DNA of 64,000 nt from an uncultured Candidatus Saccharibacteria bacterium (GTDB lineage: Bacteria; Patescibacteriota; Minisyncoccia; Phycocordibacterales; PALSA-1337). Positions 1 to 51,677 of the stretch are shown here, piece after piece. Each line of letters opens with the position of its first letter. Within the stretch, counting starts at the first letter, position 1. The notes below the pieces were generated by a model. It worked only from the letters and a program-made list of their open reading frames with translations, was not told the DNA's origin and searched no databases. A program made the translations under genes and the position numbers. The DNA lies in assembly GCA_964529025.1 (NCBI GenBank), contig CAZGUZ010000004.1, positions 4,805 to 68,804 of the forward strand, written 5' to 3'.

Positions 1-202
1 GAAAAATTATATTAGCATGTATGTTTGCTCAATAATTAATGGACAATATGTTGCTGAGAAATACGAAAAAGAGCTTGGTAAGGTGAGTGTCGGCAAAAGC
101 TGCATCCGATTCAATAAGGTCGAGGATATTAATTTGCCGGTCTTGAAAAAGGTAATTAAAGAGGCGGCGAAACGACCCGGTTTAGTTATGGATAAAAGGT
201 AA
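1..202 (+). CDS. DUF1801-like small protein, C-terminal part (ORF may extend upstream of window)
   Basis: Translation CIRFNKVEDINLPVLKKVIKEAAK resembles the conserved C-terminus of DUF1801/YdeI-like proteins; the frame is open to position 1. Confidence 0.45.
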   Translation, partial: KNYISMYVCSIINGQYVAEKYEKELGKVSVGKSCIRFNKVEDINLPVLKKVIKEAAKRPGLVMDKR

Positions 203-224
203 AAAATGATATAAGATAAATACT

Positions 225-425
225 ATGAAAACATTAAAATGCGACATGTGTGATCACGAGGAGAGTGCGGAAACGTTCGAGGAGTGGATGAACAAGCTAA
301 AGCCACATTGGGGATCTGCTCATGCGGAGGACATGAAAAAACACATGAATTTGCCGCCAGAAGAGCAAAAAGCACTCATGCAAAAGTGGATGGCCGACAA
401 CAAAGCTCGTTTTGACGTGGCATAA
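225..425 (+). CDS. DUF1059-like small Cys/His-containing protein
   Basis: 66-aa protein MKTLKCDMCDHEE... has the size and N-terminal MKxxxCxxC pattern of the DUF1059 family. Confidence 0.5.
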   Translation: MKTLKCDMCDHEESAETFEEWMNKLKPHWGSAHAEDMKKHMNLPPEEQKALMQKWMADNKARFDVA

Positions 426-444
426 AATTAGAAACAATTTCAAT

Positions 445-753
445 ATGAATAAAAACGTTATTGTAGAAATCGCACAATTCAAACTTGTAGCAGGCGTAAG
501 CGAGAAAGATTTTTTGCAAGAAGCCGAAGTGGTGCAAAATAATTTTCTTGAAAAGCAAAGCGGCTACATAGACCGCGAGCTTCTAAAAGACAAAGATGGT
601 CAATGGGTGGATATTCTCCACTGGAACTCAATGGAAGAAGCGCAGAAAGCTGCCGAAGTGATGATAAGCGATCCCGCAACACAGGACTTCATGCAAAAAA
701 TCGACCCCTCAAGCGTCAAGATGTTGCATTTGGAAATTGTAAAGAAGTATTAA
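445..753 (+). CDS. ABM (antibiotic biosynthesis monooxygenase-like / Dabb) domain protein
   Basis: About 100-aa protein with ABM-fold-like sequence (VIVEIAQFKLVAGVSEKDFLQEAEVV...WVDILHWNSMEEAQ). Followed by a stem-loop terminator at 779-818. Confidence 0.45.
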   Translation: MNKNVIVEIAQFKLVAGVSEKDFLQEAEVVQNNFLEKQSGYIDRELLKDKDGQWVDILHWNSMEEAQKAAEVMISDPATQDFMQKIDPSSVKMLHLEIVKKY

Positions 754-21191: not shown

Positions 21192-21674
21192 ATGATTTAT
21201 AAAATTATCAATTCCTTGTGGGTAAGTGTCGCTGTGTTATTTGCTGTGATTTCTGTTGTGCCTCAGCAAGCACTTGCTCAGCCAGCTCAAACGGGCGGCG
21301 CTGTACAAACAGGGCAAAACAGAGACTACAGTGGTCTTGTAAAGTGCGATGGTTTTATTAAAGATGCGAATAATAAAGAACTTCCGGGTAATTATACTGA
21401 GTGTAATTTGGCCGCTATTGTGTCCATCGTACAGGCCCTCATTAGTTGGTTTTTTGGAATATCAGGCTCACTTGCAGCATTACTCTTTATGTATGGTGGT
21501 GTTTTATACCTTTCAAATAATCCAAGTAATATAGAAAAGGCTCACCAAATATTTACCAATACCGCCCTTGGTATTGGTATTGTTGCTACAGCTTGGCTAT
21601 TTGTAAAGACAATACTTGAATTTGTTGTAAAGCCAGAATATCTATCAATCGTTACAACCTTTTTTGGAAAATAA
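21192..21674 (+). CDS. VirB2/TrbC-like pilin family small membrane protein (paralog 1)
   Basis: Signal peptide plus two hydrophobic helices separated by a short loop; first of six tandem paralogs. Confidence 0.5.
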   Translation: MIYKIINSLWVSVAVLFAVISVVPQQALAQPAQTGGAVQTGQNRDYSGLVKCDGFIKDANNKELPGNYTECNLAAIVSIVQALISWFFGISGSLAALLFMYGGVLYLSNNPSNIEKAHQIFTNTALGIGIVATAWLFVKTILEFVVKPEYLSIVTTFFGK

Positions 21675-21675
21675 T

Positions 21676-22116
21676 ATGAAAAATAAAATTTTTGGAGCAG
21701 TGTGTGCAGTGTGGTGTACTCTATGTATCTTTTCAGCACCTCTACTTATTCAGAGTGCTCATGTTGAGCAAGCTTTTGCTCAGACCCCAACAGATAATCA
21801 AGGGCCAGCTACAACTGGTGGCGCTAGTCAATCGGGTGCAAAATTGCCTACATTGGGTAATCCGCTTAAAGTTAAATCAATTGCAGGTGTTGTTGATTTG
21901 GTTATCGGCCTTGCTTTACGCGCAGCTTTCATTGTTGCAGTCCTTGCAATAATGTACTCAGGCTTTCTGTTTGTTAAAGCGCAGGGAAGTGATGATGAAA
22001 TCACTCATGCTAAAACAGTTTTCTGGAATACGATTATTGGAGTTGCGCTTATATTTGGAGCAAGCGGTTTGGTAAAAATTATACAGGTAACTATTGAGGC
22101 CGTTAAAGCACCATAG
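21676..22116 (+). CDS. VirB2/TrbC-like pilin family protein (paralog 2)
   Basis: Same architecture: signal peptide, helical hairpin. Confidence 0.5.
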   Translation: MKNKIFGAVCAVWCTLCIFSAPLLIQSAHVEQAFAQTPTDNQGPATTGGASQSGAKLPTLGNPLKVKSIAGVVDLVIGLALRAAFIVAVLAIMYSGFLFVKAQGSDDEITHAKTVFWNTIIGVALIFGASGLVKIIQVTIEAVKAP

Positions 22117-22170
22117 AGAGGTTGTGGATAGTTAATAAAATTATACATGTATATGTGGCATAATATATAC

Positions 22171-22818
22171 ATGAAAACTTTAATTTTCCCTCGGTATATT
22201 TTTACAATTTTTGCTGGTGTAGTAGCATTTATTCCTTCGGTAAGTTTTGCCGCAAATAAAACACTGAGCGATCTTACATCTCTTTTGGGTTCGTATATGC
22301 AACAAGCCATATATCTTATTATGGCTTTTGCTGTTTTAACATTCGTTTGGGGAATTTATAATTATTACCTTAAGCCCGATGCTGATAGGGGTGAAGCAAT
22401 GAATTATGTTCTGTACGGTACTATTGGCTTCTTTCTCATGTTGTCATTCTGGGGCTTGGTAAATATTATTAAGAATACACTTGATCTTGATAATACTGCA
22501 CCAAGTATCCCAGTTATTCAGTCATTACAGTTTAGATCGGGTACTCCTGGGGTTGGTTCAGGCGGTGGAACATCTGGAGTTGGTTCTGGTGGGGGTACTT
22601 CCGGTGTAGGGTCAGGGAGTTCAAATTATGTGGCACCACTTCCAAACGGCTCAACTATTAATCCTGTAACCGGACAAGGCTCAGGCGGTGGTACTCCCGG
22701 ACAAGGTTCAGGTGGTGGTACTTCTGGACAAGGCTCAGGTGGAGTGCAAGGTGGAGTGGATTATACACCACCTGCGACTGGACCACTTGATTCGGGTGAT
22801 CAGCAAATCAACTCCTAG
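22171..22818 (+). CDS. VirB2/TrbC-like pilin family protein (paralog 3) with Gly/Ser-rich repetitive C-terminal tail
   Basis: Same N-terminal architecture; tail GVGSGGGTSGVGSGGGTSGVGSGSS...GQGSGGGTPGQGSGGGTSGQGSGG encoded by DNA tandem repeats. Confidence 0.5.
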   Translation: MKTLIFPRYIFTIFAGVVAFIPSVSFAANKTLSDLTSLLGSYMQQAIYLIMAFAVLTFVWGIYNYYLKPDADRGEAMNYVLYGTIGFFLMLSFWGLVNIIKNTLDLDNTAPSIPVIQSLQFRSGTPGVGSGGGTSGVGSGGGTSGVGSGSSNYVAPLPNGSTINPVTGQGSGGGTPGQGSGGGTSGQGSGGVQGGVDYTPPATGPLDSGDQQINS

Positions 22819-22830
22819 TCTATCCCTATA

Positions 22831-23325
22831 ATGAAAACATCACTTAGTGCCATTGTTCTCGGTGTCCTTGCAGCAGTTCCTTCATTTGCTCATGCTCAGA
22901 CGCTCACAACTCTTCAGGGAGTTATTGATTATGCAGCTCGACTTGGTAATGCTATTGTTCCGATCGTTATTTCTATCGGTGTTATCTACCTCGTTATTAA
23001 TATCGTACGATGGTTTATCATTGAACCAGGTGAAGAGCGAACAGCAGCACTTTACCAGGTTCTTTGGGCAGTTCTCGGTCTTTTCCTCATCTTGTCTATC
23101 TGGGGTCTTGTGAACATTCTTCGAAATTCATTCCAAACAAATCGATCAGCTCCTACAACTGAGTTCCCAACAGTGTTTGTGCCAAATATTGGTGGCGGTG
23201 GAACAACAAGGGGATCAAGTCCTTCACCAGTATCGGGGGGTAATAGTAATTTGCAAGGAGCTGTTGATTTTACTCCCACGCAAAATAATCCACTCAATTC
23301 AGGTAATCAGCTCCTTGATTCATAG
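22831..23325 (+). CDS. VirB2/TrbC-like pilin family protein (paralog 4) with Gly-rich tail
   Basis: Signal peptide MKTSLSAIVLGVLAAVPSFAHA plus helical hairpin; first 354 nt identical to the next gene. Confidence 0.55.
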   Translation: MKTSLSAIVLGVLAAVPSFAHAQTLTTLQGVIDYAARLGNAIVPIVISIGVIYLVINIVRWFIIEPGEERTAALYQVLWAVLGLFLILSIWGLVNILRNSFQTNRSAPTTEFPTVFVPNIGGGGTTRGSSPSPVSGGNSNLQGAVDFTPTQNNPLNSGNQLLDS

Positions 23326-23397
23326 TTCTCCACAGGGAAGAAAATGAGGTTAGTATTCTTTGGTATACTTAATATATCTTTAAAATAATTGTAACGT

Positions 23398-23760
23398 ATG
23401 AAAACATCACTTAGTGCCATTGTTCTCGGTGTCCTTGCAGCAGTTCCTTCATTTGCTCATGCTCAGACGCTCACAACTCTTCAGGGAGTTATTGATTATG
23501 CAGCTCGACTTGGTAATGCTATTGTTCCGATCGTTATTTCTATCGGTGTTATCTACCTCGTTATTAATATCGTACGATGGTTTATCATTGAACCAGGTGA
23601 AGAGCGAACAGCAGCACTTTACCAGGTTCTTTGGGCAGTTCTCGGTCTTTTCCTCATCTTGTCTATCTGGGGTCTTGTGAACATTCTTCGAAATTCATTC
23701 CAAACAAATCGATCAGCTCCTACAACTGAGTTCCCAACAGTGTTTGTGCCACGAATTTAA
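23398..23760 (+). CDS. truncated duplicate of paralog 4 (lacks Gly-rich tail)
   Basis: 100% nucleotide identity with 22831-23184 over 354 bp, then diverges into VPRI-stop. Confidence 0.45.
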   Translation: MKTSLSAIVLGVLAAVPSFAHAQTLTTLQGVIDYAARLGNAIVPIVISIGVIYLVINIVRWFIIEPGEERTAALYQVLWAVLGLFLILSIWGLVNILRNSFQTNRSAPTTEFPTVFVPRI

Positions 23761-23767
23761 TACAACT

Positions 23768-24076
23768 ATGAATTTAGGAGTTTTGATTGTGCATGCAGCA
23801 GCAAGCGACGAAGCTCTTAAAAAGGTGGATGCATATATTTCGGTTGTTGCAACAAATATATTAAATCCAATTATTGCTCTAGGTTTTGTAGCTGCAACAC
23901 TCCTCTTTGTTTGGGGAGTGTTTAGCTATATGAGGGGAGCTGCTGATTCTTCGGCTCGGGCAGATGGTGCACGCCATGTTTTGTGGGGTGTCATTGGTAT
24001 GGCAATTATGGTTTCTGTATATGGAATAATTAACTTTATTTCTGCGACAATGGTGAGTGTATTGGAAAAGCAGTAG
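23768..24076 (+). CDS. VirB2/TrbC-like pilin family protein (paralog 6)
   Basis: Helical-hairpin small membrane protein with the same Lx3WGxxNI-like pattern. Confidence 0.45.
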   Translation: MNLGVLIVHAAASDEALKKVDAYISVVATNILNPIIALGFVAATLLFVWGVFSYMRGAADSSARADGARHVLWGVIGMAIMVSVYGIINFISATMVSVLEKQ

Positions 24077-24094
24077 TAATAACTGATGATTTTG

Positions 24095-24160
24095 GCAAAA
24101 GAATAACCGCGCTTTATGGGCGCGGTATTTTGCTGGCCGAGTGACACGAGGTCACTCGGG
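24095..24160. terminator. two adjacent hairpins (ccgcgctttatgggcgcgg; ccgagtgacacgaggtcactcgg) between convergent transcription units
   Basis: Perfect inverted repeats; they mark the boundary between the AT-rich pilin array and the GC-rich island. Confidence 0.5.
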
Positions 24161-24673
24161 CAGTTTCTCGATCCAAATTGTCGATGCCGTTTGCACGGGC
24201 GACGACTGGTCGATCCAACACTCGAGGTATGTGGCAGGCGGGTAGTGAACCCGCTTGCTGCGGTCTCCGGGTTTGGCCCGGAGCTCGAGGTTTTCGTTTG
24301 AGTCTACATCATAGATGTAGCGACGGCTCATGTAGCCGTCCACCTGGATTACGAGCCTGAGGCCCGAGCCCAGGTGCTTCTGGTCAACCGAGAGCTTGAA
24401 GTTTACAACTCCCGGCTTAATGACGGTCGGTTGCCCGACTGAGAGCGGGTACACCGTCACGGTGTACTGCCGCTCATCGCGCTCCGTCTGACGGAATGCG
24501 ACGGTGGCGGCTTCGGCCTGGGATTCCTTGCGGATTCCCGAAACCCAAGCAGTGAGGGGCTCCTTGAGAGCTGATATGATGAGTAGTCCGACGATAATCG
24601 TCACCACCCACCGAATGATACCTACGATCTTCTTTGACGGATCGTTGGCACCTTCTTTTTTCTTGTCTGCCAT
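24152..24673 (-). CDS. hypothetical membrane-anchored protein (GC-rich island gene C; possibly NfeD-like beta-domain partner)
   Basis: N-terminal TM IIRWVVTIIVGLLIISAL then a soluble beta-rich domain; GC about 57%, unlike the host. Confidence 0.45.
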   Translation of the reverse strand: MADKKKEGANDPSKKIVGIIRWVVTIIVGLLIISALKEPLTAWVSGIRKESQAEAATVAFRQTERDERQYTVTVYPLSVGQPTVIKPGVVNFKLSVDQKHLGSGLRLVIQVDGYMSRRYIYDVDSNENLELRAKPGDRSKRVHYPPATYLECWIDQSSPVQTASTIWIEKLPE

Positions 24674-24677
24674 AGCT

Positions 24678-25745
24678 TTACGGGGTTCCTTGGTTCATGT
24701 TGACACCAGCAGGATTCAGGTCGAATGCCCGAACAACATCAGCGATTTGCTCAGGTGAACAGCCAGTTCTTGTCATGGAGGCAATGAGCGCATCGCGCCT
24801 AGCCGCATCGTCAGCTGCTGCATTCGCAAGTGACCGCCTTTGTTCGGTGAGTCTCCTCTCCATCGCTTCATCTTCTGAAGCGGTAGTGAGTGCTAGGCTA
24901 ACAATCTTGAATCTTCCCACAGCGATGCCAAGCTCAATTTGCTTAGGATCAAGTACGGTTTTCTCCCCGTAGCTGAGTTCAAGATGAGCAAGTGCCGCAG
25001 CTTGTCCAGTAGCCCCCTGAACACTGTCAGGGGTCTTCTGGGCAAACCACTGCCTCATGTAGTTGAGCACATGAAGGCGCACCTGTTCTTCGAGGTCTGG
25101 GTAACCTTTGCATTCTCCACTGAAGAATCGCTTAGCGGTGATTCCTGCAAGAGGTCGTATGACTTGGTACTGCAAAGAGAACTCCGCACTAGCAGTTCTC
25201 TGTACGAGGGTTGTTGACCCTGAGTCGGGAAGAGGTGCGGGCATAAGTGGAAATTGATCCTTAAGAACCAGCACCCTTGGCCCCACCTTGAACTTGGTTG
25301 CCACGGTTACCCATGGCGGCTTGACTGTGACAGTGACGGGCATGAACGCTCCATCTATCACTACTGGTGGACCCGTGTAGGACATAACCTTTGTCGGGTC
25401 ATCGTCTTCGATTTCCGGTATATCGAATCCCTTAAGCTCAACTGGGAAGTTAATGCCAAAAGGGTTCTGAAGTACCAGAATTTCATCTGCTTCGGGCACA
25501 ATGAGGTGCTTTCCGATGAAGAAGAAAGTTGAAATCAAAGTGACGGCCGTGAAGGATTTTGCCCCACACTTCCACCCTGAGAATCCAATAATCTCCCCCA
25601 TGGTGTTGAAGACGAATACTGCTAGCGCAGCCACAATGAGTGATGCGACTAGCGAGAGTCCTACATACCCTAGTGGGGTAGACAGGCGGTAGCCCCATTT
25701 CTGCTTGAAGCTTGCTCCCTGAGTTCTAGCTATTAATGTTGACAT
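24678..25745 (-). CDS. hypothetical membrane protein, possibly SPFH/band-7-like (GC-rich island gene B)
   Basis: Two N-terminal TM segments, a central mixed domain, and a C-terminal Ala/Arg-rich coiled coil (ERRLTEQRRSLANAAADDAARRDALIASM) reminiscent of SPFH proteins. Confidence 0.4.
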   Translation of the reverse strand: MSTLIARTQGASFKQKWGYRLSTPLGYVGLSLVASLIVAALAVFVFNTMGEIIGFSGWKCGAKSFTAVTLISTFFFIGKHLIVPEADEILVLQNPFGINFPVELKGFDIPEIEDDDPTKVMSYTGPPVVIDGAFMPVTVTVKPPWVTVATKFKVGPRVLVLKDQFPLMPAPLPDSGSTTLVQRTASAEFSLQYQVIRPLAGITAKRFFSGECKGYPDLEEQVRLHVLNYMRQWFAQKTPDSVQGATGQAAALAHLELSYGEKTVLDPKQIELGIAVGRFKIVSLALTTASEDEAMERRLTEQRRSLANAAADDAARRDALIASMTRTGCSPEQIADVVRAFDLNPAGVNMNQGTP

Positions 25746-25837
25746 GTAATGAACTTACCATTTGTTGAATGGCACCTTTCTGTATATATATTACAATATA
25801 AAATATAGAATGTCAAATATGTTAAATTATGAAAATT

Positions 25838-25866
25838 AGACAAAAGGAAAGGCGCGCCGCAAGCGG
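25838..25866. terminator. 22-nt perfect palindrome ggcgcgccgcaagcggcgcgcc with T/A runs on both sides (bidirectional terminator)
   Basis: Read directly; lies just 3' of the 25900-26601 gene. Confidence 0.55.
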
Positions 25867-25899
25867 CGCGCCGATTTTGTTGTACTACTGCCCGCACCG

Positions 25900-26601
25900 T
25901 TATTCCGGCGTGAACAGGACGATCCGAGGATCGTTACCGTCGTTCGAGATCTCAAACCTCCTGACGGGCATAGGTTTCTTCTGCCACTCGGCAAAAGGGA
26001 TTGTGCCACCGGTTTCAAGGAGGACGTTGATGACAACCCCTGGATCGGGGTCGATGTTGAATCTTACTCGATTACTGATCGTCACGGTGGCGACCTCGCC
26101 ACCGAGGAGTGAGATCGAGCCAACCTGGCTCGAGGTTGTCCAGACATACTCGAGTTGGGGCACCTTAACCTTCCTCTGCGCCTTTTCAGGCTCAGAATAT
26201 GTGCGTTCTGCACGTACCGACCCCGTTGGAGGACGGACGAGAGTAGAGCGCTCAAGGTGATGGTTCTCGTTGTCCAACTGGTCCTCCAACGCAGCGAGTT
26301 TCTTTCGAAGCTCCGCAGCGTCGCGGATTGCCGTGTCACGCGAATGTTCAATTCTCGAGACGTGGTTGGTGAGTTCGCGAATGCGGGCTTCCGAACCGCT
26401 TTCGACATCGTGCCGTCGAGGAGTTGTTGGCGAGTTCGTTGCACCGGCCGTGGTGGCCGCAGTTCGCTTCTCAGCAACCAACTGCCCCCCAAGCCAGTGC
26501 CGAACACTCGGCACGAAGAGGAGGGCGCAGGCCGTGATGATCACGAGCTTGAACCAATGAGCTTTGACGAATTTCCAAATAGCTGCCCAAATTGCTGTCA
26601 T
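25900..26601 (-). CDS. hypothetical single-pass membrane protein with coiled coil (GC-rich island gene A)
   Basis: TM LVIITACALLFVP, coiled-coil RIRELTNHVSRIEHSRDTAIRDAAELRKKLAALEDQL, C-terminal beta-rich domain; GC-rich. Confidence 0.45.
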   Translation of the reverse strand: MTAIWAAIWKFVKAHWFKLVIITACALLFVPSVRHWLGGQLVAEKRTAATTAGATNSPTTPRRHDVESGSEARIRELTNHVSRIEHSRDTAIRDAAELRKKLAALEDQLDNENHHLERSTLVRPPTGSVRAERTYSEPEKAQRKVKVPQLEYVWTTSSQVGSISLLGGEVATVTISNRVRFNIDPDPGVVINVLLETGGTIPFAEWQKKPMPVRRFEISNDGNDPRIVLFTPE

Positions 26602-26787
26602 GATTCCTTTCTGCCCGTACCTTCATGGTACGAGATCTGTTAATATCTTATCATACTTAAGCAGCAATGTCAATAGCTTGAGGTAACGTATTTAATATGA
26701 GAATCCTGCTGTTCTTTTTGCTATAAAATCTATGGTGTTAAAAAGAGTGCAGAAAAAACCGCAAATGCGGTTTAAATAATGTTAAAT

Positions 26788-26999: not shown

Positions 27000-27140
27000 T
27001 GTGCTAGGGGAATTGAATGGGTGAATCGGTCACGCGTTAAAATTGCTACACAATTTTACGCTCGACCCCGCCTCCTGTGCACCGGTTCGCTACGCTCACA
27101 TCGGTGCTACAGTCCGGCTTTCGATTCCCGCCTCGGGCAC
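27000..27140 (-). repeat. copy E3 of the GC-rich repeated element, between tRNA-Leu(TAA) and tRNA-Lys on the tRNA strand
   Basis: Read on the minus strand: gtgcccgaggcgggaatcgaa-AGCCGGA-ctgtagcaccgatgtgagcgtagcgaaccggtgcacaggaggcggggtcgagcg...cgtgaccgattcaccc. The first 20 nt are a perfect inverted copy of the 3' end of tRNA-Leu(TAA). Confidence 0.5.
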
Positions 27141-27173
27141 TTAAATAAGCGCTTTCGCGCTTATAAAATACTG

Positions 27174-27255
27174 TGCCCGAGGCGGGAATCGAACCCGCAC
27201 GCCGTGAGGCCGCCGATTTTAAGTCGACTACGTATACCAGTTCCGTCACTCGGGC
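27174..27255 (-). tRNA. tRNA-Leu (anticodon TAA)
   Basis: Reverse complement GCCCGAGTGACGGAACTGGTATACGTAGTCGACTTAAAATCGGC...GCGGGTTCGATTCCCGCCTCGGGCA; long variable arm. Confidence 0.8.
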
Positions 27256-27349: not shown

Positions 27350-28033
27350 TTAAGAAAGCGGTTCTCTTGGTACATCTTTTTCTGCTACTTGAGCAAGCTT
27401 TGGTCGAACGATTTCGAGGAAAATATAGATTGCAACAAGGGCTACAATTGTACCACCGACAACAACAATACTCAAAACAAGAGGGTTCTTAATGATATCA
27501 ACGGTAGCTCCAAAGCCTACGAGTATAACTGTGGGTATAAGGCCAATGATACTGTGTATCCAAATAAAGCGCGAGAACTTAATCTTAGTTAAGCCAGCTG
27601 CATATGATACGACTTCTGGTAGTGGGGCAAAGACGATGCGGGCTATGATAAAGCCACGCATGTCTTCCATATAGGTTAGGACTGCATCGACATACTGTTC
27701 GCTTTTTGCATCAAGTAAAGCGTTAACGATCTTGCGGCCATAGATTCGAGAAATATAAAAGCTTATTACTGAACCCAATAAGTCACCAAGGACTATATAG
27801 AGCATTCCAAACCAAGGACCAAAAATCAAACCAGCAACAGGGTACAGGGGTGAGCCTGATATTGGGGCAGCAACGATGGTTGTTGCTTTAAGTAAAATAA
27901 GGACAATTGGAGCCCAAATGCCTGCTTTTGCTACGTATTCCTGGGCAGTATCAATAGGAATAAAGAATGAGGCTATAACAAAAGCTCCCAAAAGAGCAGC
28001 TACACCGAGCATTGTTCCGTATGATTTTTTCAT
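27350..28033 (-). CDS. DedA/TVP38/TMEM64 family membrane protein
   Basis: Multi-TM protein with a DedA-like core (LLKATTIVAAPISGSPLYPVAGLIFGPWFG). The start codon abuts tRNA-Cys, so the longer 28102 ORF start is rejected. Confidence 0.6.
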   Translation of the reverse strand: MKKSYGTMLGVAALLGAFVIASFFIPIDTAQEYVAKAGIWAPIVLILLKATTIVAAPISGSPLYPVAGLIFGPWFGMLYIVLGDLLGSVISFYISRIYGRKIVNALLDAKSEQYVDAVLTYMEDMRGFIIARIVFAPLPEVVSYAAGLTKIKFSRFIWIHSIIGLIPTVILVGFGATVDIIKNPLVLSIVVVGGTIVALVAIYIFLEIVRPKLAQVAEKDVPREPLS

Positions 28034-28034
28034 G

Positions 28035-28108
28035 AGGCGTAGGCCGGGATCGAACCGGCGCATAGCAGTTTTGCAGACTGCCGCGTTGACCAACTTCGCC
28101 ACTACGCC
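28035..28108 (-). tRNA. tRNA-Cys (anticodon GCA)
   Basis: Reverse complement GGCGTAGTGGCGAAGTTGGTCAACGCGGCAGTCTGCAAAACTGCTATGCGCCGGTTCGATCCCGGCCTACGCCT. Confidence 0.8.
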
Positions 28109-36037: not shown

Positions 36038-36210
36038 AGTGCGCAGGGAGGGATTTGAAAGACGGAACGAGCGCAGGCGAGCGAGTCGGGTGAGAATGTG
36101 TAGCATTCGCAAGACTCATTGAGCTCGAGTACTCGAGGGCCAATGAGTGGACAGACCCTGTAAGGGTCGCAGAAACTTTCAGCAGAAAATTATCTGTGAC
36201 CAAATCCTTG
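36038..36210 (+). repeat. copy E4 of the GC-rich repeated element; first 21 nt are a perfect inverted copy of the tRNA-Tyr 3' end
   Basis: gtgcgcagggagggatttgaa-AGACGGA-acgagcgcaggcgagcgagtcgggtgagaatgtgtagcattcgcaag...ctgtgaccaaatcc. The reverse complement of nt 36038-36058 equals ttcaaatccctccctgcgcac of the tRNA. Confidence 0.5.
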
Positions 36211-36248
36211 CATTTAAGCATGCGGCGGTATATTCTCTAGCAAGAATG

Positions 36249-36737
36249 AAACTCATAATAATGCGTCATGGAGACCATTTCGAAAATGCGCTCACTAAAT
36301 ATGGAATTGGCCAGATAACAGATCTCGGCAAGGCGCTACCGCAAATCATTGCTAGGCATGGCATTGATGTTTCAAGAGTCCTCTTTTTGGTGAGTCCACA
36401 AGGAAGGACACGTGCAACAGCTTATAGACTCGAGGCACACCTCGAGTCCTGTGGTATGCAACATTGCCAATACGAAGTCGTAGAAGTATTTGAAAGCGAG
36501 GATGATGCTGGCTACCAAAAGGCAGCAGAGCTCATCGCCGAGCGCTGTAAGCGTGAAGACTACACGTTGGTGTGGGTGGTAACCCATTTTTACCATATGG
36601 CTAACGTCCCGTATCTTGTACTGAGTCTGATGTGTGGCGAAGGTGTTGCCGACCCAGTCCAAATCTCTACAGCGTGCTGCGACCCAATCCTGATCGACAC
36701 GACTAATGGTAAGAGCTGGTATCCTCTTTGTGACTAG
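36249..36737 (+). CDS. histidine phosphatase superfamily (phosphoglycerate-mutase-like) protein
   Basis: IIMRHGD (RHG catalytic motif) and a downstream RTRATA segment. Confidence 0.55.
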   Translation, partial: KLIIMRHGDHFENALTKYGIGQITDLGKALPQIIARHGIDVSRVLFLVSPQGRTRATAYRLEAHLESCGMQHCQYEVVEVFESEDDAGYQKAAELIAERCKREDYTLVWVVTHFYHMANVPYLVLSLMCGEGVADPVQISTACCDPILIDTTNGKSWYPLCD

Positions 36738-40327: not shown

Positions 40328-42121
40328 ATGTCAGAAGCAAAAATATGTACTGATACAGCAGAACCGCTGTTCACTCGAAACCCTGTTGGCTACCTTTTTG
40401 CAGCAATGTGGAGGTATTCAAGAGGGAATCGGTTGGTTGTTGCGGCGTTCTGGCTCATGTTTGCAGTTGGTGGCATCATTGCAATCGCTCTTGAACCTTA
40501 CTTTATTGCGCAGATCCTTGATCATGTGCAAAAGAAGGGTGTGAGCGAATCGGATATTCCGTTCATTACAAAGAATCTGTTCGGAATCGTAGCAGTCGCT
40601 ATAGGTTTTTGGTGTTTTCATGGCCCAGCTCGGGTTATGGAAATTGCCAATGCTTTTTTGGTGCGTCGAAACCATCGAGAATTCTTTGTGGGCGGTGTCC
40701 TAAGTATGCCGATGAAATGGCACAATGAGAATCACTCAGGTGAAATCATTGATCGCATGGAGAAGGGTTCTGCTTCACTCCATGGTTTTGCAGGCGACAC
40801 ATTCGACGTATTGTATGTCGTTGCCCGACTCATTGTTACCTATGTAGTACTTATCCATTACAATTTTGTTGCGGGTTGTATTGCAACGGTGTTCTTGGGT
40901 ATATCTATTTGGGTTACGGTTAGATTCGATCGGATACTTAAGGATCGATATGTGCAAATGTCGAAGGCTGAAAATAAAACAGCTCGCGACGTTCATGATA
41001 CGGTAACGAATGTTGCAACAGTCATTACGCACAGAGTCCAACATCGAGTATTCGATAGGATTATGTGTGGAATGGATGAACAAGCGAGCATTACAAAGAC
41101 TACCGCAAAACTCGATGAAACCAAGTGGTTCATTACTTCGGTACTGTGCGCATGTATGCTCGTTGCAATCCTCTGTTTTTACTTTTGGAATGCAATTGAG
41201 CGCAAAGAGGTAATTGCCTTTGGCAGTCTGTTCTCCCTCTATACGTATACAAACGGTTTGTCGCAAGTATTTTACCGGTTCTCGGGGTCATACTCGAGAA
41301 TTGTTCGATACAGGACACGCGCGAAAAACGCAGAAGAGGTGGCCAAGGAATTCCCCACTCATATTGCAGAATCTGAGCGGCTTCCTGAGTCATGGGCGAC
41401 TATTCGTATTTCAGGGCTTAGTTTTGGTTATAGCACTGATTGCCCTGAAGTAGTTCGAAACATCAATGCCGAGTTTCGGCGGGGCGAAAAAGTCGCCCTT
41501 GTTGGAGCAAGTGGAACTGGTAAAAGTACAATACTTTCGCTTTTGCGAGGTTTGTACGACCCCACGTACGGTGTAGTCTTTGTTGATGGTGTGTTTTGGC
41601 CGAGTGGTCTTAAGGGTTTTGGGGAGTCTGTAGGCTTTATGCGCCAGACGTCTCAGATCCTTGACGGCACTATTAGGTATAACCTCACTCTTGATGCTGA
41701 ATACACTGAAGAGCAAATCAACGAGGCAATTGCCATGGCCCGCTTTGATACCGTGGTTCAAAGACTACCAAAAGGACTTGAGTCTAGAGTCTTTGAGCAA
41801 GGTGTTAACTTGAGCGGTGGCGAGTGCCAGCGGCTCGCACTTGCACGGAGTATCCTTGCCTCATTCGGGAGGGAAATAATCCTCCTTGATGAACCAACGA
41901 GCAGTCTTGATCCGGTAACAGAAAAGTTTGTGCTTGATGGAATCATGCAAAGATTCCGTAAAGAGCTCATCATCTGTTCAACACACAGGTTCGACATACT
42001 GCCTCAGTTCGACAGGATCATCGTCATGAAAAACGGTGAGATTGTGGACTGTGGTACCTATGATGAACTTATGGAGCGCTGTTCTGAGTTTGTCAGACTC
42101 AAGAGCGCTAAGGTCGAGTAG
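40328..42121 (+). CDS. ABC transporter, fused permease/ATP-binding (exporter type)
   Basis: 6-TM N-terminal half; Walker A GASGTGKST, signature LSGGECQRLALARS, Walker B ILLDEPTSSLD. Confidence 0.8.
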   Translation: MSEAKICTDTAEPLFTRNPVGYLFAAMWRYSRGNRLVVAAFWLMFAVGGIIAIALEPYFIAQILDHVQKKGVSESDIPFITKNLFGIVAVAIGFWCFHGPARVMEIANAFLVRRNHREFFVGGVLSMPMKWHNENHSGEIIDRMEKGSASLHGFAGDTFDVLYVVARLIVTYVVLIHYNFVAGCIATVFLGISIWVTVRFDRILKDRYVQMSKAENKTARDVHDTVTNVATVITHRVQHRVFDRIMCGMDEQASITKTTAKLDETKWFITSVLCACMLVAILCFYFWNAIERKEVIAFGSLFSLYTYTNGLSQVFYRFSGSYSRIVRYRTRAKNAEEVAKEFPTHIAESERLPESWATIRISGLSFGYSTDCPEVVRNINAEFRRGEKVALVGASGTGKSTILSLLRGLYDPTYGVVFVDGVFWPSGLKGFGESVGFMRQTSQILDGTIRYNLTLDAEYTEEQINEAIAMARFDTVVQRLPKGLESRVFEQGVNLSGGECQRLALARSILASFGREIILLDEPTSSLDPVTEKFVLDGIMQRFRKELIICSTHRFDILPQFDRIIVMKNGEIVDCGTYDELMERCSEFVRLKSAKVE

Positions 42122-46016: not shown

Positions 46017-46907
46017 TTACTCCATGATGCTTCTTGCAGCATCAAGGATTTCCTTGAGGTAGTTCTCAGCTGACCACCCGTTGCCGAGAAGGCCAAAGAC
46101 TGGCTTTTTGAATGCGTACCTCGGCTGTACCTCAGGCGTGACACGGCCAGTCCAGCCAACTTGTTTGGCAAAATCGCCGAAACTCTTGAGGGGAAGCTTG
46201 CCGCGGCCGGGTATAGGATTTCGGCCTTTTGTGTCACCAAGATCAGGTAATGCATCGCAAAGGTGAATCTCTTGAGTGCACCTAAGCAAAGTGCGGGCTC
46301 CTTCAAGAAGCATGCGCTCAAGATCACTGTTGGTGTACCTAGCAAGTCTCGAGACTCCGATTCCGCCAGTACACCATTCAAGGTAGTGCATTGTGTCGAA
46401 CACAACGCAACGGGTGACGGGCGAGCAAGTTGTTGCAATACGGACAAAGTCCGCAATGCTAATCTGCTTGTCTACCACCTGGCACGTTTGAAACAGAAGT
46501 CCGTCCCTAGCGCGATGAACTTCATTCTGGATTCTGTGGGCATAGCCCACGAAAAACCCTTGTGTTTCGTTAAGTCGAATCTGCGACTCAATCGGCTCTG
46601 TTTTCCGAGGGATTTTGCCGAGTGCAGCAGCCACGTAGTTAAACTTGTGGTTACTCCCATTCTCCAACGACCAGACTTCATGAAACCTCACCTCGAAGGG
46701 CCTGCTGTGGCGACTTGTGGTCGCTTCAGCAAGCTCTTTGATTTTGGTAAAGTCTGTTCCGGGGAATGTGACAATCTCAATACCATCGAAGCCAACACTC
46801 GCAGCCATTTCCATCTGTTCCCCAAGAGGAATGCTTGGAAATGCTGTAAGCGCTGCCGACGGCATGATGTACGTATGTCGATGTTTCATCTGACTACTTT
46901 TTAACAC
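46017..46907 (-). CDS. sugar phosphate isomerase/epimerase-like TIM-barrel protein (moderately GC-rich)
   Basis: Xylose-isomerase-like TIM-barrel pattern (VGFDGIEIV...); GC visibly above genome background. Confidence 0.45.
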   Translation of the reverse strand: MLKSSQMKHRHTYIMPSAALTAFPSIPLGEQMEMAASVGFDGIEIVTFPGTDFTKIKELAEATTSRHSRPFEVRFHEVWSLENGSNHKFNYVAAALGKIPRKTEPIESQIRLNETQGFFVGYAHRIQNEVHRARDGLLFQTCQVVDKQISIADFVRIATTCSPVTRCVVFDTMHYLEWCTGGIGVSRLARYTNSDLERMLLEGARTLLRCTQEIHLCDALPDLGDTKGRNPIPGRGKLPLKSFGDFAKQVGWTGRVTPEVQPRYAFKKPVFGLLGNGWSAENYLKEILDAARSIME

Positions 46908-50429: not shown

Positions 50430-50987
50430 GTGAAAACATTTGTAATCTTTCTGGATCAGCTTGAAAAGGCCGGGCTAGATGTAGAAGCTGTAGAAGCCTT
50501 TTCTGTGCTTTCGGGCGCAGAGAAGGCACGCATTGCCGCCGCAATGATGGCAGTGATGAGGGTACCGCCTGACTCCGGTCAGACGGTGGTCATGCAGCCT
50601 CCTCCGGTCCAGCAAGGCAAGAGCCGGAAGGTACATATCGTCAATCGCACGAGTGGCCTTCCGAAGGTGGAGTGCAGTGTCCACCGAGAATGGCCGCCAA
50701 TCGGTGTCGTCGCTATTGGCACTGAAATGTGCCTCGGTGATATCGAAGACGTTGGGCCGGGGTGGCGGCTGGCAAACCCAGCTGAGATGCTGTGGTATGT
50801 AGCTGTAGTAACACCAAAGACATCGTTCATTGGGGAGAGGGCTGTGGTCCACGGGAAGGGTTATCAACTTCTCCTTAAGTTGAGAGATGACGGGTCCTGG
50901 ACTCAAGAGTTTGGGACCATGGCAAAGGGCGGGAGTCACTTTCCAGCACTCCTCGTCAAGATCAACAACGAGGACTACATCATCTAG
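50430..50987 (+). CDS. hypothetical protein (GC-rich, probable acquired gene)
   Basis: 185-aa ORF with protein-like composition and GC about 58%. The antisense 264-aa ORF is Cys/His/Arg-rich and was judged spurious. Confidence 0.4.
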   Translation: MKTFVIFLDQLEKAGLDVEAVEAFSVLSGAEKARIAAAMMAVMRVPPDSGQTVVMQPPPVQQGKSRKVHIVNRTSGLPKVECSVHREWPPIGVVAIGTEMCLGDIEDVGPGWRLANPAEMLWYVAVVTPKTSFIGERAVVHGKGYQLLLKLRDDGSWTQEFGTMAKGGSHFPALLVKINNEDYII

Positions 50988-51179
50988 AGTACTTGCTCTG
51001 GATGATGCGCAAAAGACGGTCATTCTCGAAAGAGGTGGCCGTTTTCTTTTTTGTACTACGCAAGACTTTTTTGATAAGGATATACGCATTCCACATAACT
51101 TTGTATAGGTATCGGGTGATAAGAACGACATTTTATATATAGAGAATTCATACAAGAATGACTGATCGATCACGTAATT

Positions 51180-51208
51180 GACATATATAGCTAAAAGTAG
51201 TATAATCT
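51180..51208 (+). promoter_or_regulatory. consensus sigma70 promoter ttgaca - 17 nt - tataat
   Basis: Read directly, about 50 nt upstream of the 51261 ORF, with a gaggga SD-like motif before the ATG. Confidence 0.5.
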
Positions 51209-51260
51209 TCTTCAGAAAGGACCCTATAAACGGTTCATAACGAGCCGAGGGAACAATCAA

Positions 51261-51677
51261 ATGAGTCATTATTTACATAGAGGCCCGTCGAGGGTCGAGT
51301 ACCTCAAAGCAACCTTTTCGATGGTTGCCTCATCGGTGTTTTACTTCGTCGCAGCTGCCATCGTCTTGGTGGTGGCGCTGTGTCTGAAGCTCGACATCGA
51401 GTTTACGTACAGACCTATCTGGGCGCTGTTTGGTGTCATTGTGGCGATTGCATCGCTTGGGCAGTTGTGCTGGATTGTACCCAGCACAATCTACGCCCTG
51501 CGAAATGAGTTCAAAAATCAGGTCATCTGCGACATGGAGTCGCGGATCGACACTGCACAAGTGATGCTTCCGTGGCGGCTGCCACGAGAGGTGTGGGATG
51601 GGTTGGCTGACGACGCACAACGACTTCGCCGCTCTTGGAAACGGCGACAAGAGCGGCGGCGAAGTGCTGGGAAGTAG
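51261..51677 (+). CDS. hypothetical 2-TM membrane protein with Arg-rich C-terminus (GC-rich)
   Basis: TM segments VFYFVAAAIVLVVALCL and IWALFGVIVAIASLGQLCWIV; followed by terminator ggcggagga-cttgtt-cctccgcc-tttttt (51686-51720). Confidence 0.45.
   Translation: MSHYLHRGPSRVEYLKATFSMVASSVFYFVAAAIVLVVALCLKLDIEFTYRPIWALFGVIVAIASLGQLCWIVPSTIYALRNEFKNQVICDMESRIDTAQVMLPWRLPREVWDGLADDAQRLRRSWKRRQERRRSAGK

Follow-up and report, generated by a model that had tools for sequence, protein, structure and literature searches.

A hypervariable, predicted SPFH-fold membrane module beside a tRNA cluster: probably a resident locus with ancient exchanged alleles

Between a cluster of tRNA genes and an array of pilin genes, the 64,000-nucleotide (nt) stretch analysed here (the window; contig CAZGUZ010000004.1, from an uncultured Candidatus Saccharibacteria bacterium) carries a block of three membrane-protein genes, referred to as A, B and C, whose guanine-plus-cytosine (GC) content is raised above that of the surrounding DNA. 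A preliminary description of this DNA, made from the sequence, took the block for a horizontally acquired island. The evidence presented here favours, with a probability of roughly two in three, a different reading, in which the block is a resident SPFH membrane-scaffold module with ancient alleles that have been exchanged between lineages, and no inserted island. The three minus-strand open reading frames (ORFs), of 233, 355 and 173 amino acids (aa), are present as first described, and the tRNA-Leu/Lys/Leu cluster does adjoin the block. The features on which the argument turns are the following:

24519..26600, unstranded: hypervariable block, comprising the C N-terminus, the whole of B, the B-C promoter and the whole of A, with sharp drops in nucleotide identity at its edges
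25900..26601, minus strand: gene A, 233 aa, transcribed on its own and exchangeable as a separate cassette
24678..25745, minus strand: gene B, 355 aa, hypervariable, with at least six allele classes
24152..24673, minus strand: gene C, 173 aa, starting 4 nt past the B stop codon
26788..27255, minus strand: tRNA-Leu(tag), tRNA-Lys(ctt) and tRNA-Leu(taa), a conserved cluster that closes the slot on its right
21192..24076, plus strand: array of six T4SS_pilin (PF18895) genes that is convergent with the module and closes the slot on its left, likewise conserved

The arrangement of tRNAs, A, B, C and pilins was recovered from NCBI, ENA, JGI and Logan in 10 independent assemblies, as far as each contig extends, and one of these, L089, carries the module at the same site with an infB that is just 86% identical to that of the window. 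No empty site was found, as all ten loci of the genus are occupied and the corresponding slots of outgroups hold an SPFH gene. Pfam scans of the neighbouring genes returned housekeeping, pilin and VTT-domain genes and no integrase or recombinase, in agreement with what had been noted before, and no att-like direct repeat of a tRNA 3' end was found, only short two-copy matches of the chance type. Among 5.8 billion sequences, B is represented by 4 clusters, A by 3 and C by 9. An exhaustive HMMER scan of 1.84 billion cluster representatives yielded 5 clusters for B, the contigs of which, where looked up, are chromosomal and belong to this genus, and no homologue outside the lineage was found among these representatives. 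Phage and plasmid records (tblastn of B), viral contigs (scanned with B, C, A5 and A6) and metagenome scans anchored on the VTT gene and on the C alignment gave no matches. No donor for the module was found in the databases searched, and the 64-kb window holds no silent cassettes or second copies.

These observations bear directly on the proposal that an SPFH/NfeD module was acquired once and recently, from a high-GC Gram-positive host, at a tRNA hotspot. Such an event would fit the outlying GC and third-position GC (GC3), the adjoining tRNA cluster and the shift in amino-acid usage, but it is very unlikely given that the same site is filled in 10/10 relatives, that the slot of 26 distant relatives holds an SPFH gene, and that a homologue in other taxa, an integrase, an att repeat and an empty site were all looked for and not found. 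The preliminary description had itself proposed to look for an empty site next to the tRNA cluster in related genomes. Because the same three genes occupy the same site in every related low-GC genome retrieved, the recent-island reading is refuted by its own comparison, and the transfer from host to episymbiont that it envisaged finds no homologue outside the lineage to start from. An assembly chimera, in which a foreign GC-rich fragment was mis-joined, would likewise produce an abrupt change of composition at the block edges; it can practically be set aside, as the same junctions appear in the 10 independent assemblies and promoters and terminators fit the gene boundaries.

The slot extends well beyond the genus. 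The window is part of a Patescibacteria chromosome of the Paceibacteria/Parcubacteria type. In it, gyrA lies to the left of the block together with genes for a methyltransferase and a solute-binding protein and the six T4SS_pilin genes, and to the right are the tRNA-Leu/Lys/Leu cluster, a VTT-domain gene, tRNA-Cys, rbfA and infB. The order infB, rbfA, tRNA-Cys/Leu/Lys/Leu, a slot of ~3 kb, pilin array, solute-binding-protein gene, methyltransferase gene and gyrA is kept in distant Paceibacteria (infB 44-53% identical). The slot of these outgroups encodes, in the same orientation, a protein of 330-480 aa that has transmembrane (TM) segments and a C-terminal helix rich in Ala and Glu; a second membrane protein comes next. 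One such slot protein (L018, 13468-14862) matches Pfam Band_7 at an expect value (E) of 6e-11, with 43 bits against a cutoff of 23.6. An iterated hidden Markov model (HMM) search started from it gathered 25 proteins, one per locus and all in the same slot, and 17 of the 26 members of this slot family match Pfam Band_7 (best E 2e-13). Pairwise identity between the B family and the outgroup slot proteins is ~12-28%. By sequence, no homologue of the module turned up in 79 distant loci, and the downstream partners in the outgroups, membrane proteins as well, are not NfeD by sequence and show no relationship to C. Some outgroup slots also hold accessory genes, namely a MazF/PemK toxin gene in L018 (12906-13292, minus strand) and, in L022 (12130-13944 and 14624-15001), a gene for a response regulator and a pair of ORFs of similar size (274 and 311 aa) inserted between the tRNAs. 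As regards function, these accessory genes and the adjacency of the pilins are suggestive only.

At the level of fold, the predicted structure of B is that of an SPFH protein. In B, a TM helical hairpin at the N-terminus is followed by a mixed alpha/beta domain and then by a long C-terminal Ala/Glu/Arg helix, with model helices at 24-53, 58-80 and then 290-326 that agree with hydropathy across alleles; this is the SPFH architecture of an N-terminal anchor, an SPFH domain and a long C-terminal helix. An AlphaFold model of B based on 8 divergent alleles has a predicted local distance difference test score (pLDDT) of 74, while a model from 4 sequences (pLDDT 49.5) was unusable. The top 17 Foldseek matches to the former model (E 8e-8 to 3e-4) are consistent with SPFH, a search of a viral structure library with it retrieved phage and giant-virus Band-7 proteins, and its alpha/beta domain has the SPFH fold. 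The original designation of B as SPFH/band-7-like is therefore upheld at fold level, by AlphaFold and Foldseek, with no match to Pfam Band_7 (PF01145) at E <= 1 for any of the 8 B alleles. Comparison of A, B and C with Pfam, NCBIfam, PHROGs and PADLOC gave noise only (coiled-coil matches; an Rz-like spanin at E 0.01; BrxC/ZorA at E > 0.02). Profile comparison offers a moderate link between B and the outgroup slots: hhalign aligns the B family with the 25 slot proteins at a probability of 73% (E 3e-5) over 95 collinear columns, stopping at the beta-strand that precedes the long helix, and iterated HMM searches between the two families give E 0.015-0.03. Because fold, position, orientation, architecture and this moderate profile link agree, B appears to be a very diverged member of the resident SPFH lineage. 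Its charge bias tentatively places the SPFH domain in the cytoplasm.

The partner proteins are less easily classified. Every allele of C is 173-180 aa long and has a single TM segment, with a variable N-terminal region of ~52 aa and a conserved C-terminal domain of ~120 aa (~90% identical) that looks beta-rich, its alternating hydrophobic pattern suggesting ~7 strands. It had been proposed as an NfeD partner of B, with SPFH and NfeD matches expected in profile searches. That expectation is borne out for B at the level of fold and not for C. Although C lies in the same operon as the SPFH gene, across a 4-nt gap free of terminators, Pfam NfeD matches neither the 10 C alleles nor 23 positional equivalents in outgroups, and PDB profile searches with C return no solved NfeD chain at E <= 10. 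Its architecture also differs, having one TM segment, whereas NfeD proteins have 140-150 aa, three N-terminal hydrophobic stretches and an all-beta domain that is soluble (PMC2636767). A likeness of C residues ~36-84 to levivirus (MS2/fr) coat proteins was considered as well (engineered tandem dimer E 1e-4; single chains 0.16-0.7; hhalign 25%) and judged to be due to chance, because the match weakens once divergent alleles are added. In A, a single TM segment at the N-terminus is joined by a low-complexity linker rich in Thr, Pro and Ala to a coiled coil, and the C-terminal domain, of ~85 aa, is conserved and contains the motif FEISN. Its alleles match neither NfeD nor other families, a PDB-sequence profile search with them gives no NfeD chain, and a relationship between the beta-domains of A and C was rejected (hhalign 1.3%).

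The layout of promoters and terminators, read from the DNA itself, divides the locus into two transcription units, one consisting of A and the other of B and C, on the basis of the following features:

26645..26673, minus strand: promoter-like site of gene A, TTGACA-17-TAAGAT with TG; it belongs to the conserved flank, immediately beyond the edge of the variable block
25851..25872, unstranded: 22-nt perfect GC palindrome, GGCGCGCCGC-AA-GCGGCGCGCC, with A/T-rich tails on both sides; bidirectional intrinsic terminator
25788..25816, minus strand: promoter-like site of the B-C operon, TTGACA-17-TAATAT, in an AT-rich spacer
24106..24161, unstranded: double hairpin, whose terminator occupies 24106-24126 and whose other stem, at ~24137-24161, overlaps the C stop codon

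The palindrome, of which zero would be expected by chance, is conserved at 84-93% across allele classes, and the B-C promoter is likewise conserved. The preliminary description was right about its existence and ~13 nt off in placing it at 25838-25866; the double hairpin at the left end is as it had stated. The terminator at 24106-24126 is bidirectional and common to the C side and the convergent pilin array, and the flank beyond gene A is conserved at 84-94% nucleotide identity up to ~26600. Since C starts 4 nt past the B stop codon, B and C form one operon and are probably translationally coupled. The centre of the palindrome switches between TT and AA among strains (CT in L088) while its arms remain identical, as would be expected from loop inversion or template switching in a hairpin, and its stem in L089 carries compensatory changes.

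The alleles of the module are far more divergent than the genomes that carry them. Flanking proteins are 93-99% identical between relatives, with synonymous divergence (dS) of 0.2-0.6 and a ratio of nonsynonymous to synonymous divergence (dN/dS) of 0.02-0.06; allele identity ranges over 26-85% for A, 21-94% for B and 61-94% for C. Near-identical strains can carry versions of the module that share just ~22-60% identity, and for A, B and the C N-terminus the values between strains lie at 21-85%. B falls into six classes, a number that is a lower bound:

B class 1: the window (W), L085 and L086
B class 2: L001, L087 and L088
B class 3: L089
B class 4: L090
B class 5: L002
B class 6: L004

Between B classes synonymous sites are saturated, with a proportion of synonymous differences (pS) of 0.75-0.8, and within classes dN/dS is 0.16-0.32 with an excess of third-position changes. 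These values indicate that A, B and C are real genes and that the alleles are old and under purifying selection, as opposed to decaying or hypermutating. Allele relationships, as the compared sequences have them, disagree with host relationships: the window, L002 and L004 are 95-96% identical in the pilin gene pil6 at the nucleotide level, yet their B proteins are just 23-26% identical, and between the window and L085/L086 pil6 is 83-85% and B 81-84% identical. L085 is a mosaic, with a window-like B (82%) and an L004-like A (70%). Nucleotide identity breaks at 24518 (inside C), at 25828-25889 (the palindrome) and at 26595-26605 (the A start codon). Because A and B are reassorted and identity breaks at these three conserved anchors, two exchangeable cassettes can be distinguished, and the locus behaves as A on the one hand and the C N-terminus, B and their promoter on the other. 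Fixed position, conserved flanks, sharp breakpoints, deep discordant alleles and mosaics are all found here, as in a cassette locus. The N-terminal ~52 codons of C diverge in step with B, a co-variation that suggests an allele-specific membrane contact. In L090, a broken ORF stands in place of A upstream of B (1-600, minus strand), a candidate zinc-ribbon transposase, and the contig ends there.

In-situ targeted hypermutation, by a diversity-generating retroelement or by local error-prone repair, would also produce a sharply bounded variable block. This explanation is hardly credible, since the neighbouring genes scanned contain no reverse-transcriptase domain, no template-like repeat was found, and all codon positions diverge with dN/dS < 1. 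Moreover, host-discordant, mosaic alleles argue for exchange and not for clock-like local mutation.

The unusual composition that prompted the island reading is real. The coding block at 24152-26601 has a GC content of 0.529, compared with a mean of 0.419 for the remaining 2.5-kb windows (standard deviation 0.018, maximum 0.469; z = 6.0), and it has the largest tetranucleotide distance in the 64-kb window, so the compositional checks proposed at the outset single it out as an outlier. In 300-nt windows over 24050-26600, GC is 0.49-0.59 and falls to 0.40 in the A-B spacer, against flanks of ~0.40-0.43; the rise that had been given as ~40% to ~57% is thus genuine, but the mean is ~53% and the block is non-uniform. 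GC3 is 0.63 in A, 0.50 in B and 0.71 in C, compared with 0.26-0.37 in neighbouring genes, and since first- and second-position GC (GC1, GC2) are raised only slightly, the excess is mostly synonymous. The module differs from core genes in its use of CGG (19% vs 1%), GGG (27% vs 4%), GTC (31% vs 8%) and AAG (71% vs 38%), and the core-rare codons enriched in it are G-ending and C-ending alike. In its proteins Pro, Val, Trp and Arg are modestly up and Lys and Ile down. Over all alleles GC3 ranges from 0.40 to 0.55 in B, 0.46 to 0.75 in C and 0.53 to 0.69 in A, and within the module it peaks in the best-conserved segments, reaching 0.75 in the C-terminal domain of C.

Over 30 loci, the GC3 of the module is weakly related to that of the host (slope 0.32, r 0.37). 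In AT-rich hosts the GC3 of the slot SPFH gene exceeds that of infB in 19/20 cases, the mean offset being +0.14 (SPFH gene) and +0.21 (partner), while in the GC-rich host L082 the sign of the offset is reversed. Partner GC3 and SPFH GC3 are correlated across slot loci (r = 0.88). Because module GC3 is decoupled from host GC3 across the clade and the partner tracks the SPFH gene, the preference for GC-rich codons is a coherent feature that the module has had for long, clade-wide, and no mark of recent transfer. Candidate causes of the excess are movement of the module between lineages that differ in GC, selection on composition, and GC-biased gene conversion if the locus is a recombination hotspot, none of which is established. 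GC-biased conversion is doubtful as the sole cause, since neither pil6 nor the tRNA spacer, the flanking anchors, is rich in GC, and translational selection is unlikely because rare G-ending and C-ending codons increase together. Raised GC3 (0.45-0.64, genome ~0.30) also occurs in ORFs at 36147-36737, 40328-42121, 46017-46907, 50475-51269, 51261-51677 and 818-1421, among them an ABC transporter, weak AP_endonuc_2 and 8xMP membrane-protein matches and ORFs without a family; GC-rich coding patches are therefore not exclusive to the SPFH locus.

An alternative possibility is that homologous cassettes have been imported repeatedly from an unsampled, GC-richer reservoir, either other Paceibacteria lineages or a plasmid or phage of the clade. 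This would jointly account for the deep divergence, the discordance between alleles and hosts and the non-host codon usage. Between-class synonymous sites are saturated and yet GC3 stands at 0.40-0.75 against a host value of 0.30, the shift to G- and C-ending codons alike is typical of a different mutational regime, the weak dependence on host GC3 and its reversal in L082 would fit, and Paceibacteria of higher GC, such as L082 and L022, do occur among the loci. No such reservoir was found, however, in the exhaustive HMMER scan, whose five clusters trace, where looked up, to chromosomes of this genus, or in phage and plasmid records, viral contigs or the 79 distant loci. Replacement at exact anchors, in addition, requires donors with the same AT-rich flanks, and the donors would therefore be members of the same genus. 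Repeated import is thus a tentative alternative, and an unlikely one.

If the block is instead a resident module with exchanged alleles, its parts can be assembled as follows. B would enter the membrane via its N-terminal helical hairpin and, like other SPFH proteins, would probably oligomerise via the long C-terminal helix into a membrane ring or cage. C would be a single-pass partner produced from the same operon, with its N-terminal tail and TM segment matched to the B allele, and A, which is transcribed separately, would be a single-pass protein that acts with B and C and carries its conserved C-terminal domain on a coiled-coil stalk. The allele classes, ancient and at least six in number, are exchanged between lineages by homologous recombination at three anchors, namely codon ~52 of C, the terminator formed by the GC palindrome, and the A start codon with its 5' flank. 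Deep alleles that are under purifying selection and discordant with the host phylogeny point to long-term balancing or diversifying selection as the force that would keep this diversity, most plausibly through conflict with phages or through cell-cell or host interaction, and a role in conflict may be linked to the adjacent pilin apparatus. In a bolder and doubtful version, the clade-wide SPFH module beside the pilins would be a balanced-polymorphism conflict or identity locus with alleles older than species and exchanged as cassettes, its synonymous GC held far off the genome equilibrium by a locus-specific process such as GC-biased gene conversion or selection on base composition, and SPFH would be the specificity element of an undescribed system.

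A more specific proposal is that the module is an anti-phage, abortive-infection or superinfection-exclusion system built on an SPFH membrane sensor, with an arms race against phage inhibitors driving its variability. Alleles that are deeply diverse and turn over fast, an atypical composition and a place in a variable slot next to tRNAs would all be in keeping with defence. So would the MazF/PemK toxin and response regulator gathered in outgroup slots, the concentration of variation in B (tentatively cytoplasmic) and less in the conserved A and C domains, and the Band-7 proteins that phages encode, as the viral structure library matches show. Nevertheless, PADLOC gave no matches above noise, no effector domain is recognisable, literature searches returned no report of an SPFH-based defence system, and the module appears universal, where most defence systems are patchy. 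A dedicated defence function is thus improbable.

Several points weigh against the reading of the block as a resident SPFH module. The fold of B was called from a model based on just 8 sequences, and the other four AlphaFold (AF2) models scored lower (51-65). B is not recognised as SPFH by Pfam, NCBIfam, PHROGs, PADLOC or a PDB-sequence profile search; hhalign of B with stomatin (an approximate query sequence) gives a non-significant 3.6%, although the aligned strand is positionally right, and hhalign with three individual slot proteins is not significant. Orthology of B with the outgroup slot genes is something we infer from position, orientation, architecture and the 73% hhalign probability; SPFH genes may instead have been captured independently at a hotspot. 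We also infer the oligomerisation of B, its contact with C, the topology of A and C, around whose TM segments the charge bias is ambiguous, and conflict as the selective agent and source of diversity. The co-variation of the C N-terminus with B could be simple linkage within a haplotype block. Finally, none of the causes considered explains the GC3 excess. Polarised synonymous counts of strong-to-weak (S-to-W) versus weak-to-strong (W-to-S) changes, intended to tell GC decay from GC maintenance, do not decide between the two: they are 27 vs 27 in B class I and 20 vs 6 in C, with core controls that carry a parsimony bias.

The boundaries of the slot show some features of their own. On the tRNA side, a perfect 21-nt inverted copy of the tRNA-Leu(taa) 3' end (27120-27140 vs 27173-27193) lies 32 nt from the gene, in the 223-nt spacer that separates tRNA-Lys from tRNA-Leu(taa) and is unusually rich in GC. 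L002, L085 and L088 have the inverted match too, which may be what is left of a tRNA or else a structure involved in processing or termination. The VTT-domain ORF at 27350-28102 was called with a GTG start (28102) that overlaps tRNA-Cys (28034-28108), and its true start is probably an ATG near 28060, because the protein of relatives has 237 aa. On the pilin side, 22831-23325 and 23398-23760 form a tandem duplication, also found in L004, in which the first ~118 aa are identical and the second copy is truncated to 120 aa. Compared with L004, pil3, pil4 and pil5 are 80-89% identical in aa sequence, the outer pilins 92-96% and housekeeping neighbours 98-99%, which suggests that some pilins evolve faster.

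SPFH proteins are usually seen as conserved housekeeping membrane scaffolds. Here a predicted SPFH-fold protein that escapes detection by sequence forms the core of one of the most variable loci between near-identical strains, at a position kept across a large group of ultra-small, probably symbiotic bacteria. Pilins are thought to serve surface interactions in such bacteria. If the variability reflects conflict or partner specificity, it would represent a new kind of role for SPFH assemblies and would provide a strain-typing and recognition locus for Patescibacteria. The case also calls for caution in island detection: because the module is older than the genus, a tRNA-adjacent outlier in GC and codon usage need not be recent foreign DNA. 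In addition, the GC3 excess at saturated synonymous sites offers a tractable test case for non-mutational forces on composition.

Literature searches returned no description of this locus, and it can be compared with several known systems. The most obvious are the operons that pair an SPFH gene with NfeD, including E. coli QmcA-YbbJ (PDB 8z5g) and YqiK-YqiJ, B. subtilis FloT/YuaG-YuaF and P. horikoshii stomatin PH1511 with its NfeD. In contrast to these, B and C are undetected by sequence, C (173 aa, with a ~120-aa C-terminal domain, encoded downstream of the SPFH gene) has one TM segment where NfeD proteins have about three, and a third gene, A, hypervariability and an anomalous composition are added. 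HflK/HflC-FtsH and prohibitin cages differ in that here there is a single SPFH gene, with no paralogous pair and no adjacent FtsH gene; and whereas HflK/C are periplasmic, B has a TM hairpin and a charge bias that suggests a cytoplasmic domain. Closest in position are the syntenic Paceibacteria Band_7 genes such as L018:13468-14862, which share slot, orientation, architecture and a following membrane partner; 17/26 of them are Pfam-recognisable while the B family of the window is not, and the partners are unrelated in sequence. The B. subtilis pspA-ydjGHI (samGHI) module similarly joins two small membrane proteins with an SPFH protein and is reported to act in envelope stress (PMC8581546; bioRxiv 10.64898/2026.02.06.704340). 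The present locus lacks a PspA gene, and whereas SamI is reported to be a cytosolic SPFH protein, B has its own TM hairpin. In fixed position, conserved flanks and divergent content, the locus resembles the SAR11 hypervariable regions (PMC2217521) and the hypervariable Ig-domain module of Thermococcales (PMC8416519). Unlike replacement-type islands, it retains the same three families as deep alleles, has an SPFH core and lies above its host in GC. What is new is thus an SPFH module, undetected by sequence, in the form of a hypervariable cassette locus whose composition is decoupled from that of its host.

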